DNA from: a virus | Virus record (IMG/VR): IMGVR_UViG_3300045988_002166 | Coordinates: 1-5,887 of that record | Strand: one strand, 5' to 3' | DNA length: 5,887 nt | Shown here: one piece after another, positions 2,658-5,287 of the stretch | Layout: every line of letters starts with the position of its first letter | Position numbering within the stretch: the first letter of the stretch is position 1 | The notes under the pieces: generated by a model | The model's input: the letters and a program-made list of their open reading frames with translations, nothing else | Database searches by the model: none | Told to the model about the DNA's origin: nothing | Made by a program: the position numbers and the translations under genes

Positions 2658-2847
2658 TTTTGTCAAGCTCCTTTTCTGTAAAGTACATTGCTATGGTGTC
2701 AATTTTTTGTAGCGAGTAGAGACCTGGGTGCCGGTTCGCGTAGTCCTTTGCTCTTTCTTTTGCATATTTTGGTTCTGCTTCGAGTTTAAGGACTGTTGTT
2801 ATACTGTCGTCATCGTTGAATCTTCTAAGTTCATAGGTGTGTTTCAT
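2650..2847 (-). CDS. Hypothetical protein, 65 aa, first gene after the promoter
   Basis: ATG 2847 has an AAAGGAAG SD 9 nt upstream. The track start at 2856 is a GTG abutting the SD. Sequence: MKHTYELRRFNDDDSITTVLKLEAEPKYAKERAKDYANRHPGLYSLQKIDTIAMYFTEKELDKND. No family recognised. Confidence 0.6.
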   Translation of the reverse strand: MKHTYELRRFNDDDSITTVLKLEAEPKYAKERAKDYANRHPGLYSLQKIDTIAMYFTEKELDKND

Positions 2848-2874
2848 TTTTAGCACCTTCCTTTCTGTAATTAT

Positions 2875-2903
2875 ATTTTATCATTTTTTTAGAAAAAAGT
2901 CAA
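2875..2903 (-). promoter_or_regulatory. Sigma70/sigmaA-type promoter with extended -10
   Basis: The minus strand reads aaaatttcaaaaaaagc TTGACT tttttctaaaaaaatga TAAAAT. The -35 TTGACT is at 2903-2898, the spacer is 17 nt, and the -10 TAAAAT is at 2880-2875, preceded by TGa (extended -10). An A-rich UP-like tract lies upstream. It sits about 28 nt upstream of the first gene's ATG. Confidence 0.6.
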
Positions 2904-2962
2904 GCTTTTTTTGAAATTTTAATTGATATATTAGCAGTCGGTTTTGCTCCTTTGTTTTGAAT

Positions 2963-2976
2963 GGCGCTTTAGCGCC
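2963..2976. other. Short hairpin GGCGC-ttta-GCGCC, function unknown
   Basis: Perfect 5-bp inverted repeat with a 4-nt loop, about 60 nt upstream of the promoter -35. Related GGCGCT/AGCGCC arms recur at 3251-3280, and AGCGCT occurs at 3024-3029. Confidence 0.7.
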
Positions 2977-3037
2977 TTGCCGTATGGAGCGTATGCGGAA
3001 TGCGGCTTAATCCATTCATTTTTAGCGCTGTGCGCGT

Positions 3038-3149
3038 TTTCAACAGTTTCAACAGTTTCAACAGGTTTTCAACAAAATATTGCACAATGATTTCCGTCAT
3101 TTTGACGAACTTTCAACATTTCAACAAATTTTCAACAAATCTTTCAACA
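3038..3149 (+). repeat. Iteron-like array: 8 direct copies of TTTCAACA in two clusters of four
   Basis: Copies are at 3038, 3047, 3056 and 3067 (spacing 9, 9, 11) and at 3111, 3119, 3130 and 3142 (spacing 8, 11, 12), all in the same orientation. The 36-nt spacer between clusters contains the small hairpin CGTCA-ttt-TGACG (3095-3107). A given 8-mer is expected about 0.09 times per strand in a window this size. Confidence 0.9.
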
Positions 3150-3173
3150 CTGTTTTTTGCTTTTTATTTACGC

Positions 3174-3185
3174 TTTAACGTTAAA
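3174..3185. repeat. Perfect 12-nt palindrome TTTAACGTTAAA
   Basis: Read directly from the sequence. It lies between the iteron array and the DnaA-box-like motif. Confidence 0.8.
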
Positions 3186-3194
3186 TTTTAGCAC

Positions 3195-3211
3195 TTATCA
3201 ACTTTTCCACA
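3195..3211 (+). promoter_or_regulatory. DnaA-box-like motifs: TTATCAACT (7/9) abutting TTTTCCACA (fits TTWTNCACA)
   Basis: TTTTCCACA at 3203-3211 differs from the canonical TTATCCACA at one position and fits the relaxed consensus. It has the same orientation as the TTTCAACA repeats, three of which read TTTTCAACA (8/9 to the relaxed consensus). The function is inferred only. Confidence 0.3.
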
Positions 3212-3250
3212 TTGCCTACTACTACTCCTACAACAAGTTATATATTATAC

Positions 3251-3280
3251 GGCGCTTGTGAGCTTGCGAACAATAGCGCC
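3251..3280. other. Hairpin GGCGCT-(18 nt)-AGCGCC enclosing the -35 and spacer of a candidate weak minus-strand promoter; its -10 lies just outside at 3244-3249
   Basis: A 6-bp perfect stem. The minus strand reads TTGTTC (3273-3268), an 18-nt spacer, then TATAAT (3249-3244). Confidence 0.6.
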
Positions 3281-3287
3281 TAAAGAG

Positions 3288-3332
3288 TCGCGCGTGCGCG
3301 CGTGCGCGCTTCGCGCGCGTGCGCACGCGCGA
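3288..3332. other. Long GC-rich hairpin with alternating purine/pyrimidine arms, function unknown (candidate origin or structural element)
   Basis: 3288-3308 pairs with 3332-3312: 21 consecutive pairs (19 Watson-Crick plus 2 G-T) around a 3-nt loop CTT (3309-3311). 37 of 45 positions are G/C. The arms are built from CGCGCGTG-type units, and other pairing registers are possible. Confidence 0.9.
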
Positions 3333-3349
3333 TAAAGTATAGCTATTTG

Positions 3350-3367
3350 ATAGACTGAATAGACTGA
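3350..3367 (+). repeat. Perfect tandem 9-mer ATAGACTGA x2
   Basis: 3350-3358 equals 3359-3367. It lies between the Rep-proximal terminator hairpin and the GC hairpin. Confidence 0.85.
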
Positions 3368-3380
3368 TACATGGAGTCTT

Positions 3381-3423
3381 TAGACGACAAAAGCCCAGTA
3401 CCTTACTTGATAGGTACTGGGCT
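3381..3423 (-). terminator. Rho-independent terminator candidate downstream of Rep (VP4)
   Basis: The minus strand reads AGCCCAGTACCT-atcaagta-AGGTACTGGGCT followed by TTTGTCGTCT. This is a perfect 12-bp stem (3392-3403 / 3412-3423) with an 8-nt loop and a T-rich tail. It begins 11 nt after the Rep TAA (3437-3435). Confidence 0.6.
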
Positions 3424-3434
3424 AGGTGACACCG

Positions 3435-4454
3435 TTAAAGTGTCCCTTTCTTCTTCATCTGCTTCTTTATCACTCTCTCTTTCGTTTTGCACTGATCTGC
3501 AAAGTCTGCATTTTCGTACTTTAGTCGGTTTTCTGCTATGGCCGCTGCTTGTCTGTTCTGTTTAATTCTCCACAATCTTTGTGGGTTTTCCGCTTCCATC
3601 ATTTTTTCATAATAACGTGGAATTTGTGCGCGTTTGCCGTTTGTGCATTGGATATACCCTTGTTTCCAGATTTCTGCTTTGTGTTCTTGATAGTAGTGAT
3701 CTCCTAGACCTGGCTTAAGGCTCATACATGCAAAAGGTTTTTGTTGCCCTAGTTCGTAGTATGCGTTTGCTTTTTGACCGTCAATTTCGTACATCTTTTT
3801 TGTAACGTACCCTGCAACATATCTATATGTTGCTGGTACTGCTTGTGCTATTTGTATTTGACCCATGCCCCATAGGTCTGCCAGCCATTTACTCGTGAAA
3901 TATCCGTTGTGTTGTATCTTGTATAGGTGCTCTAGGTCTGTTGGTCTCCATCCATATAGAATCATATGGTAATGCGGCCTTGCCGTCTGTTCTCCGTATT
4001 CTCCCGCTACGAAATAGCGTAATTTGCCTCTATAAGCCTTCCTGAGGCGTTTTAAGAACTTTTGAACGTCAGTATATAGTAATGTTTGGACGCTTTCTGG
4101 ACGCTTCTCTCCCGGTTTCCAGACGTATTGCACTTTTCTCATGATTTCGCCTGTGTTTACAATCATTCCTGGTACGTGTTCATCGTCATAGGTTAACGTT
4201 ATAAACCAAACTTCTTCTCTTGGATAGTCTCGTGCTTCTAATTCTATTCGTGTTGTCCAGTCCTCCCTTTGTCTGATTCTGCATCCGATGCATTGCCCGC
4301 ATGGTATCAACATTACATCTTTTCTATACATTAAATCTTCATACTTTAGCTGTTTTCCCGCTAACTGAGAAAAGCGGGAGAGTGAATACACCCTCCCGCT
4401 AATGTTTTTGTCGTTAGGGTTGTACAGCCGTATTAACGGTTTGTAACAACTCAC
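3435..4454 (-). CDS. VP4: Rolling-circle replication initiator protein VP4 (HUH endonuclease, phiX174 gpA-like), 339 aa
   Basis: The sequence shows MSCYKPL... and the N-terminal Cys cluster PCGQCIGCRIRQREDW. It carries RCR motif 1 FITLTYDD, motif 2 (HUH) RPHYHMILYGW, and motif 3 with two tyrosines, YRYVAGYVTKK (compare phiX174 A protein YVAKYVNK). The start is GTG 4454-4452, overlapping the VP2 TGA (GTGA), with a GGTGAT SD-like element 8 nt upstream. Confidence 0.95.
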   Translation of the reverse strand: MSCYKPLIRLYNPNDKNISGRVYSLSRFSQLAGKQLKYEDLMYRKDVMLIPCGQCIGCRIRQREDWTTRIELEARDYPREEVWFITLTYDDEHVPGMIVNTGEIMRKVQYVWKPGEKRPESVQTLLYTDVQKFLKRLRKAYRGKLRYFVAGEYGEQTARPHYHMILYGWRPTDLEHLYKIQHNGYFTSKWLADLWGMGQIQIAQAVPATYRYVAGYVTKKMYEIDGQKANAYYELGQQKPFACMSLKPGLGDHYYQEHKAEIWKQGYIQCTNGKRAQIPRYYEKMMEAENPQRLWRIKQNRQAAAIAENRLKYENADFADQCKTKERVIKKQMKKKGTL

Positions 4455-5287
4455 TTTTTAACATCACCGCCTTTTCCACCGTGCGTTGCTCCGGCTTTAC
4501 TTTTGTGTGTTTTGCTTCCTTCTGGTACGTTTTTTTCAATTGCTTTGCTTGTGTCGTCTCCGATTCCGGTTAGTGTTTTCATCAGTCCGTAGGGTGTCAT
4601 TTGCGTTGTGCTTAGCATTTGTTGCCAGCTTTGTGCCGCGTTGTACCAGTCGCTTTTGCTCCAGCTGCTGCTTTCGTATGCGTTAGGTACAAATCCACCG
4701 CTTCGGCTTACTCCTAGTGCGCTGCTGCTTGCAAGTCCCATACTTGCCCCACTGATTGTTCCTGCACTTCCTCCCGGTGTGCTTGCGCCGCCGTTTGCGA
4801 ATGCTAAGATAGGGTTAAGCCCTGCTTTTTTCATGTCCTCAACGGCTCGCTGGTACGCTGTGCTTGACATGTGCTCTTGCCAGTTCCTGTTTGCTAGTGC
4901 TTCTGCGCTGTTGTAGTTCATTGCTACACTGTTTTCGATGTGGTTGTATACGCCTTGCATGATTGCTTGTAGTGTGTTATAGCCCATCTGTTTTAACATA
5001 CTCTGGCTGTTGTATTTGCCTTGCATGGCTGCTTCTTGTCCTTGGTATGCGTATGCCTGTTTTAGCCAGTCATTGACTTGCTGTACGTTGGTACCCGATT
5101 GACTTCCGCTTTCGGAGTGTCCGCCGCCTTGGCTTGTGCTGCCGCCGCTACTTTGGCTATTTCCTGTCTGTCCCCATCCGCCAAATGCTCCGGCTATGTT
5201 TTTAGCTGCTCCTGCAAAGGTTCCGATTGTGTTTGCTACGTTTCCCGCTACGTTTAGTGCTGTTAAGAGTCCAGATAGTCCACTCAT
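4451..5287 (-). CDS. VP2: Minor capsid / DNA pilot protein VP2, 278 aa
   Basis: The central block NRNWQEHMSSTAYQRAVEDMKKAGLNPILAF matches the conserved gokushovirus VP2 motif (N...W.E.MS.TAYQR.V.DMK.AGLNPIL), recalled from memory. The N-terminus is hydrophobic and Gly-rich, and there are Gly/Ser low-complexity segments. The position directly after VP1 fits. Confidence 0.9.
   Translation of the reverse strand: MSGLSGLLTALNVAGNVANTIGTFAGAAKNIAGAFGGWGQTGNSQSSGGSTSQGGGHSESGSQSGTNVQQVNDWLKQAYAYQGQEAAMQGKYNSQSMLKQMGYNTLQAIMQGVYNHIENSVAMNYNSAEALANRNWQEHMSSTAYQRAVEDMKKAGLNPILAFANGGASTPGGSAGTISGASMGLASSSALGVSRSGGFVPNAYESSSWSKSDWYNAAQSWQQMLSTTQMTPYGLMKTLTGIGDDTSKAIEKNVPEGSKTHKSKAGATHGGKGGDVKK

Follow-up and report, generated by a model that had tools for sequence, protein, structure and literature searches.

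Why should a small single-stranded DNA phage carry a dense array of short direct repeats in its only large non-coding region? The question is raised by the IMG/VR record IMGVR_UViG_3300045988_002166, whose whole stretch of 5,887 nt was analyzed and is called the window here. It represents a gokushovirus genome, circularly permuted, in which the - strand encodes every gene, and the array lies in the 578-nt intergenic region between VP4 and ORF68 (2857-3434). Our preferred answer, to which we assign a probability of about 70%, is that the repeats are DnaA boxes in the variant of the host lineage (TTTTCAACA) and that the cassette to which they belong is a compact, phage-borne basal unwinding system (BUS) of the oriC type, which would recruit host DnaA to the replicative form. 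The motifs as well as the geometry of box pair, 4-nt spacer, and DnaA-trios are identical to those of the origin-unwinding module of one bacterial lineage, and a short AT-rich tract comes next.

The repeat unit TTTCAACA is present in eight exact copies, all on the + strand (3038, 3047, 3056, 3067, 3111, 3119, 3130, and 3142), with spacings of 9, 9, and 11 nt in the first group, 44 nt between the groups, and 8, 11, and 12 nt in the second. It is expected 0.36 times in the window, and none of 200 dinucleotide shuffles reached eight copies. The original prediction, made from the letters of 3038-3211, had described these eight same-strand copies of an 8-mer at 3038-3149 together with a hairpin (3095-3107), a palindrome (3174-3185), and the adjacent motifs TTATCAACT and TTTTCCACA, and all of these elements were indeed found where it had placed them. 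With one mismatch to TTTTCAACA allowed, the window contains 12 matches, nine of which lie in 3037-3211, all on the + strand. The tract 3212-3249, which lies just past the end of the stretch that had been described, was missed at that time and belongs to the same element. The strict pattern of boxes plus trios is found once in the window and in none of 2,000 resamples. The parts of the cassette are listed in Table 1.

The spelling of the boxes pointed to a bacterial lineage. One genome per bacterial species was scanned for TTTCAACA triplets with gaps of 0-4 nt. Contigs of Oscillospiraceae, Ruminococcus, and Ruminococcaceae were numerous among the matches, and in six of these contigs dense clusters (10-15 copies per 250 bp) directly follow a gene in which the Walker-A and the signature motif of DnaA are present; in the loci L261 and L223, a Pfam search confirmed a dnaA and a dnaN gene on the two sides of the cluster. 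To remove selection bias, we also examined 80 Ruminococcus/Oscillospiraceae dnaA loci (L322-L401) that had been picked solely by DnaA homology. On both sides of dnaA, TTTTCAACA was the top 9-mer, with 192 occurrences downstream (135 in sense and 57 as reverse complement) and 125 upstream (88 and 37), and the canonical box TTATCCACA was found three times downstream and twice upstream. In terms of the 8-mer, the dnaA-flanking spacers hold 483 copies of TTTCAACA versus five of TTATCCACA, and the downstream copies of CTACTACTA are strictly oriented (73 on the dnaA sense strand versus 0 on the other). In these host origins, TTTTCAACA is the box that precedes the DnaA-trios by 4 nt, with the same tandem pair in the same place as in the phage. 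The dnaA-dnaN spacers close with box-box-GCCC-(CTA)n-AT-rich DNA, an example being GTTTTCAACAGTTTCAACACCCC-CTACTACTACTACTA before the AT-rich part, and this is the layout of the phage cassette, for which the window has TTATCAACTTTTCCACATTGC-CTACTACTACTCCTA-...TTATATATTATA.

Ruminococcus and Oscillospiraceae thus appear to use a non-canonical DnaA box, TTTTCAACA, which seems to be an undescribed variant; a literature search on the motif returned unrelated primer sequences only. The original prediction had named host DnaA as one possible ligand, and this proposal gains support from the dominance of TTTTCAACA in the origins that flank dnaA. It had also held that the repeats would be low-affinity sites at best, on account of the A at box position 6, but an A at this position is the norm in the Ruminococcus/Oscillospiraceae origins, and the objection therefore falls. 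The proteins differ as well. GGRDHST(I/V)VY, in place of RDHTTV(I/L)H, was present in 69 of the 69 host DnaA proteins whose signature motif could be located, and DnaA of B. subtilis (PDB 8BTG) and of Aquifex has RDHTTVIH at this signature. These substitutions fit an altered box preference. In the structure of E. coli domain IV with DNA, Thr435 and His439 reportedly contact bases. As judged from the boxes, the host of the phage is probably a member of the Oscillospiraceae/Ruminococcus lineage.

The right end of the cassette was examined with the published criteria for a BUS, in which the box next to the trios is compared with the species-specific consensus, the second tandem box may have up to four mismatches, and the consecutive trios have a central A on the strand that runs 5' away from the boxes (Richardson 2016/2019; Pelliciari 2021). 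The search rules allow at most two mismatches in the box and a spacer of at most 16 bp, and they call for at least three trios (PMC8287927; PMC7561715). The GC-rich gap between box and trios averages 4 bp, and the DnaA-trio, with the consensus 3'-GAT-5', is a single-strand binding element in bacterial origins (PMC8287927). The C. difficile trio 5'-CACCTACTACTATTACTACTATGA-3' has DnaA boxes ahead of it and the unwinding element behind it (PMC7561715). In the window, the box next to the trios, TTTTCCACA, is one mismatch away from the host-lineage box TTTTCAACA and also one from TTATCCACA, and the second box of the same orientation, TTATCAACT, is two mismatches away from TTTTCAACA. Relatives have TTTTCAAC-TTTTCCACA or TATTCAACA-TTTCAACA at this position, and because of the latter pair we regard TTATCAACT and TTTTCCACA as degenerate copies of the repeat. 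The trios begin 4 nt after the proximal box and 12 nt after the distal one. The spacer itself is only partially GC-rich in the window (TTGC), and it is GCCC or CCCC in relatives. On the other strand, the trios read 3'-GAT GAT GAT GAG GAT-5', with the same polarity as in the host origins. On these features, we assign the architecture of a BUS to the right end of the cassette, namely, a box pair, a short GC-rich gap, and trios, with the short AT-rich tract as the putative unwinding element and the proximal pair as the likely equivalent of DnaA-boxes 6/7 in the B. subtilis BUS. Chromosomal origins of Firmicutes lie in the neighborhood of dnaA and dnaN, and the element analyzed here lies between VP4 and ORF68, which is why we classify it as BUS-like and not as a chromosomal origin.

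The conservation of the element among microviruses follows these motifs. A BLAST search with the intergenic region against GenBank phages matched 51 microvirus records, many of them over 3036-3249 only. The array is present in all 80 close relatives that were taken from IMG/VR (VP4 91-97% identical); it is arranged as in the window in 74 of these genomes and inverted between collinear flanks in the other six. The inverted cassettes are about 80% identical to that of the window, whereas the flanks are up to 97% identical, and the breakpoints are sharp and coincide with the boundaries given in Table 1. A simple recent inversion was rejected as their source on these identities, which rather indicate replacement by recombination. 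In the genome KT264784, the cassette is found between VP2 and VP4. The inverted copies, the sharp breakpoints, and this location together characterize the cassette as a portable module of about 212 bp that is independent of orientation and position.

Two IMG/VR scans for boxes plus trios, combined with the earlier loci, yielded 207 unique microvirus-sized contigs with the phage-type tract CTACTACTAYNNCTACAACAA, in which VP1 is 35-87% (median 52%) and VP4 37-97% identical to the proteins of the window; the cassette is oriented as in the window in 165 of them and opposite in 42. The BUS pattern in the dialect of the host was found in 107 stretches among 2.9 million IMG/VR contigs, and about 100 of these are microvirus-sized. 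When 32 representatives of less than 80% identity were aligned, the columns that are at least 90% conserved are those of the boxes, the CG core of the palindrome, the proximal pair, and the trio/AT tract. Of the spacer palindrome, only the CG...CG core is conserved; the inter-cluster inverted repeat is always present in relatives, but with differing sequences (e.g., GCACAAA..TTTGTGC or GTTAAAC-TTTAAC), and the third box of cluster II is the canonical TTATCCACA in some of them. This pattern across very divergent phages is the signature expected of selection that preserves exactly the box and trio motifs. MG945781, which is not matched by BLAST over the cassette, has the same architecture in the same place with more diverged boxes. 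In addition, the AT tract GTTATATATTATA together with the preceding CAACAA forms the phage-specific invariant CTACAACAAGTTATA, which is absent from the host origins and from bacterial origins of the reference genomes.

More distant microviruses provide a natural exchange of the box spelling. Four 4.7-kb contigs of microviruses (L540, L541, L590, and L596), with VP1 33-36% and VP4 28-31% identical to the window, carry after VP4 four to five canonical TTATCCACA boxes, followed by TTTCCACATTTCCACA, ATGC, (CTA)5-6, and an AT-rich tract. The architecture is thus kept and the box spelling changed, which would be expected if each phage matches the DnaA of its own host, and which is the opposite of the behavior of Rep-specific iterons. 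In L541, the cassette (3245-3420, coding strand) directly follows the 3' end of the Rep gene with a slight overlap, and the promoter-like site TTGTGCTATAAT comes next. Structural variants of the cassette exist, too: the proximal box/trio unit is duplicated in L454, and L560 and L532 have retained little apart from the proximal pair with its trios, beside coding sequence.

From the agreement with host origins, we infer the following course of events. On the double-stranded replicative form, DnaA-ATP of the host would fill the ten head-to-tail boxes, and the proximal pair (3195-3211) would pass the DnaA oligomer onto the trios (3216-3230; 3'-GAT-5' on the - strand). The trios and the adjoining AT-rich tract (3237-3249) would then melt, giving an opening at 3216-3249. 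The candidate uses of this opening are helicase loading, help for the phage nickase, and DnaA titration. We favor the loading of the host helicase and primosome, by which the replicative form would be replicated or primed via the chromosomal initiation pathway. In Firmicutes, the helicase-loading pathway of the chromosome consists of DnaD, DnaB, and DnaI. As a side effect, multicopy replicative forms would unavoidably titrate DnaA, and this may itself be selected.

A further step, which we consider doubtful, is that the cassette is a complete and self-contained origin, either because DnaA melting exposes the invariant CAACAAG/TTATATA to nicking by VP4 or because the replicative form replicates in theta mode via DnaA-dependent helicase loading. 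The phage-specific invariant CAACAAGTTATA beside the trios could be such a VP4 nick site, which would account for the origin-like, self-contained behavior of the cassette. If theta mode were true, the replicative form would resemble an oriC minichromosome and could persist in a non-integrative carrier state, and if the nick site were inside the cassette, the 20% of the genomes with a flipped cassette would package the gene-antisense strand, which would be unprecedented for Microviridae.

Several points weigh against the view that the cassette is a phage-borne BUS. We know of no textbook need for DnaA in a rolling-circle phage with its own HUH initiator. The AT tract GTTATATATTATA comprises only about 13 nt and is followed by GC-rich hairpins, whereas the unwinding regions of the host are longer, and the invariant CAACAAGTTATA, which has no counterpart in host origins, is left unexplained by the BUS model. 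The trio end is missing in L173 and L156 and cluster I in L187, so that parts of the cassette may be dispensable or these contigs defective; if the genomes are intact, they would form a useful natural deletion series together with L454, L560, and L532. Finally, a search of 185,579 reference genomes yielded no VP4 relative, and there is consequently no prophage that links the phage to its host. The 120 bacterial loci with TTTCAACA triplets did not contain microvirus genes either, and a prophage or host link via VP4 was dropped on the basis of these two results.

Other readings have to be weighed against these data. Perhaps the cassette merely binds DnaA and was selected for titration, that is, for the shutdown of host initiation, or for DnaA-controlled transcription, and not for opening. 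In B. subtilis, initiation is inhibited by clusters of DnaA boxes (inc regions) on multicopy plasmids, and E. coli has datA, which titrates DnaA. Multicopy replicative forms with ten boxes in each genome could act as a sponge, and the independence of orientation and position suits a pure binding array. A sponge, however, needs boxes alone, whereas the most conserved columns of the cassette include those of the 4-nt spacer, the trios, and the AT tract, which have the exact geometry of the host. A transcriptional switch is disfavored by the distance of at least 130 nt between the cassette and the nearest good promoter and by the varying position of the cassette relative to it. We therefore regard titration or switching as the sole function as unlikely. 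A complementary-strand origin, with a DnaA primosome assembled on the incoming single strand as at the A site of R6K/pBR322, is very unlikely in our view, even though the majority orientation puts the 5'-TAG-3' repeats on the coding-sense strand, which is the strand bound by DnaA as single-stranded DNA. The ten boxes all point in one direction and so none of them can form a duplex box in a hairpin, which also speaks against the DnaA-box-hairpin ABC primosome that the original prediction had considered. Moreover, 42 of the 207 genomes and L541 have the opposite orientation, which a strand-specific signal would not tolerate unless the packaged strand flips, too.

The genome encodes an HUH Rep, and its non-coding region has short direct repeats beside a hairpin. 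Iterons for a phage protein, be it VP4 or some small protein that binds DNA, would look like this as well, by analogy with the origins of geminiviruses, circoviruses, and plasmids, and the array had initially been labeled as iterons. This label did not hold in either the plasmid or the HUH-Rep sense. The unit of 8-9 bp with a period of 8-12 bp differs from plasmid iterons of about 17-22 bp with an initiator of the RepA/Pi/TrfA type, and Pfam revealed neither an iteron-type Rep gene nor a DNA-binding domain in any small open reading frame (ORF) of the window, the HUH protein VP4 being the only replication protein. The co-variation with Rep that characterizes geminiviruses and CRESS (circular Rep-encoding single-stranded) DNA viruses is lacking, since the same TTTCAACA boxes accompany VP4 proteins that are 37-97% identical. 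The repeat is at the same time the top origin 9-mer of a bacterial lineage, and the distant microviruses have canonical DnaA boxes in the same architecture, which makes phage-protein iterons highly improbable. It is hardly credible, finally, that the tract, AT-rich, phased, and host-origin-like as it is, is a non-functional passenger, an assembly chimera, or curved, UP-like promoter DNA. It recurs in over 200 IMG/VR contigs and in GenBank genomes that come from several laboratories, its conservation is motif-specific, and it copies no host origin outside the motifs. The phased curved DNA upstream of a promoter that had been proposed is not supported, as the cassette moves and flips relative to the promoter.

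Some further candidates were discarded. A small protein or RNA gene within the cassette was rejected, as the 63-aa + strand ORF (3000-3191) had no Pfam match and the region 2800-3500 no Rfam family above threshold. Other regulators with sites like TGTTGAAA (Spo0A, WalR, and PhoP) were considered and dropped, because the host origins match the motif exactly. A plasmid source was sought in PLSDB, with no match. A search for a donor origin with the phage-type CTACTACTACNNCTACAACAAG gave 26 genome matches, which are Thr/Tyr-rich coding repeats with the exception of a microvirus contig that was binned as Bacteroides CAG:545. This contig, L624 (CAVKUS010000079.1, 5739 bp, labeled Bacteroides sp. CAG:545), is a complete-looking gokushovirus genome with the cassette in a Bacteroides metagenome-assembled genome. 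Its placement there is probably a binning artefact; its TTTCAACA boxes argue for an Oscillospirales host and not for Bacteroides.

Table 1. Positions of the cassette parts and of neighboring features in the 5,887-nt window (functional names of cassette parts are assignments by sequence comparison)
Feature	Position	Strand	Remarks
Whole cassette, ~212 bp, putative DnaA-box/DnaA-trio module	3036-3249	+	Sharp ends in BLAST (3036/3037 and 3247)
Box cluster I, four head-to-tail boxes	3037-3074	+	TTTTCAACA, GTTTCAACA, GTTTCAACA, TTTTCAACA; columns at least 90% conserved in 32 representatives
Inter-cluster hairpin CGTCA-TTT-TGACG	3095-3107		Weak fold
Box cluster II, four boxes	3110-3149	+	CTTTCAACA, ATTTCAACA, TTTTCAACA, CTTTCAACA
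AT-rich spacer	3150-3194		Holds the palindrome TTTAACGTTAAA at 3174-3185
Proximal tandem box pair	3195-3203 / 3203-3211	+	TTATCAACT / TTTTCCACA; one-T overlap
4-nt spacer TTGC	3212-3215	+	GCCC/CCCC/TACT in relatives; corresponds to the "GC cluster"
DnaA-trio tract	3216-3236	-	Top strand CTA CTA CTA CTC CTA CAA CAA; 3'-GAT-5' repeats (5'-TAG-3') on the - strand
Short AT-rich tract GTTATATATTATA, putative unwinding element	3237-3249		At least 90% conserved in 32 representatives
GC-rich hairpins outside the cassette	3251-3280; 3288-3332		GGCGCT..AGCGCC; 21-nt arms; flank 3250-3332
12-bp hairpin directly 3' of VP4, outside the cassette	3392-3423		Terminator-like on the - strand; loop ACTTGATA on the + strand
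VP4 replication initiator	3435-4454	-	Pfam REP_ORF2-G2P
VP2	4451-5287	-	
VP1	Spans both window ends	-	Pfam Phage_F
VP3, VP5, M15 peptidase, small ORFs		-	
Sigma-70-like promoter (best candidate), TTGACT-17-TAAAAT with TG	2875-2903	-	Putative promoter of the ORF68-M15-VP5-VP3-VP1 block; 130 nt outside the cassette

The genome around the cassette is that of a gokushovirus. The proteins VP1, VP4, VP3, VP5, and the M15 peptidase were recognized by Pfam, and the nearest GenBank relatives, with about 84% identity, are gokushoviruses of the human and pig gut. Alternating GC-rich hairpins (CGCGCA/TGCGCG) border the AT-rich cassette on both sides (3250-3332, 2963-2976, and 3020-3035), with a predicted fold of -48 kcal/mol for 3286-3334, and comparable tracts border the cassette in relatives. 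They are candidates for a complementary-strand origin or for the site of the recombination that swaps or flips the cassette. A tRNA-like appearance of the left flank of relatives (GTTCGATTCCGGAC) was not confirmed by ARAGORN in eight genomes; this sequence is a GC hairpin. A perfect tandem direct repeat, two copies of ATAGACTGA, is located at 3350-3367 between the GC hairpin and the hairpin after VP4.

The hairpin after VP4 is separated from the cassette by the GC-rich hairpins at 3251-3280 and 3288-3332. Its loop ACTTGATA, on the non-coding strand, matches the core of the phiX174 origin, (A)ACTTGATA(T), in 8 of 8 positions. The hairpin, 43 nt in length, is about 90% identical even in microviruses associated with Ciona and Apis, and it is present in 84 of the 207 cassette-bearing contigs with constant polarity and compensatory changes in the stem. 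It may serve as the VP4 nick site, as a terminator, or in both roles. In L541, GTCCGC..ACTTGATATATAT..GCGGAC is found upstream of VP4 on the coding strand.

Modules of box arrays and trios were also seen in large viral contigs (L580, L524, L586, L594, L598, L477, L506, and L466/L491). In L580, a 76-kb IMG/VR contig, the module (~300-560) has a Cas4-like PD-(D/E)XK nuclease on one side and a DNA methylase on the other, and a divergent beta-clamp is encoded in the vicinity. Tailed phages may thus carry DnaA-dependent origins of the same design, but some of the other "viral" contigs could contain host origin DNA. Viral contigs of about 95 kb with TAGTAGTAG-N-TGTGGAAAA were rejected, as the match is conserved coding sequence and not a BUS.

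The assumption that such an array was undescribed for Microviridae agrees with the literature search, in which no paper joined gokushoviruses or Microviridae with iterons, DnaA, or DnaA boxes. Searches for the origin or intergenic region of these phages returned general virome papers only, and those for DnaA-trios and bacteriophages only general replication papers and unrelated ones. As far as these searches reach, an oriC-type module of DnaA boxes and trios on single-stranded DNA rolling-circle phages, apparently tuned to the box variant of the host, has not been described before. If our interpretation is true, Microviridae, which serve in textbooks as the model of initiator-nicked rolling-circle replication, would for the first time be seen to co-opt the chromosomal initiator DnaA of the host via a miniature origin-unwinding module. 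For work on the DnaA mechanism, the cassette would offer a 50-nt natural minimal BUS that was selected for compactness, and it drew attention to the apparently undescribed DnaA-box variant TTTTCAACA and the DnaA signature RDHSTIVY in Ruminococcus/Oscillospiraceae. As the box variant of a phage should match that of the host origin, it would also permit a sequence-only host prediction for uncultured gut microviruses, most of which have no known host. The BUS-like modules in tailed-phage contigs suggest that the phenomenon may be general.

Among the known systems, the origins of phiX174 and G4 belong to the same virus family and also use non-coding DNA signals that recruit host replication proteins. 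The (+) origin of this type is a 30-bp site in gene A, and the (-) origin hairpins are PriA- or primase-dependent; to our knowledge, DnaA is not involved at these origins. Their signals are strand-specific single sites, unlike the box arrays with trios of the cassette. The A site of R6K/pBR322 shares with our proposal a DnaA that nucleates a primosome on a small replicon, but it requires a duplex DnaA box in the hairpin stem of single-stranded DNA, which boxes of uniform polarity cannot provide. Plasmids with iterons and auxiliary DnaA boxes (pSC101, R6K, RK2, P1, and F) resemble the cassette in their clustered direct repeats, DnaA boxes, and AT-rich DNA, and they are likewise small extrachromosomal replicons that draw DnaA from the host. 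Their iterons of 17-22 bp, however, are bound by a plasmid-encoded Rep, whereas the unit found here corresponds to the 9-bp DnaA box, with no such Rep. The iterons of HUH-Rep replicons (geminiviruses, circoviruses, nanoviruses, and pMV158) are also short direct repeats that flank a hairpin near a rolling-circle origin, but they co-vary with Rep, whereas the cassette repeats do not and match the sites of a host protein instead.

The closest counterpart is the chromosomal BUS, as in B. subtilis incC and C. difficile oriC2. Common to both are the tandem pair of the same orientation, the 4-nt spacer, and at least three trios, as well as further box arrays upstream that point to the trios, in a geometry that is that of the dnaA-dnaN spacers of Ruminococcus/Oscillospiraceae. 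In contrast to its chromosomal counterparts, the cassette resides on a 5.9-kb single-stranded DNA phage genome with its own HUH initiator, away from dnaA and dnaN. It is compressed to 212 bp with a short AT tract and portable in either orientation, and it carries the phage-specific invariant CAACAAGTTATA and has no second, upstream half of an origin.

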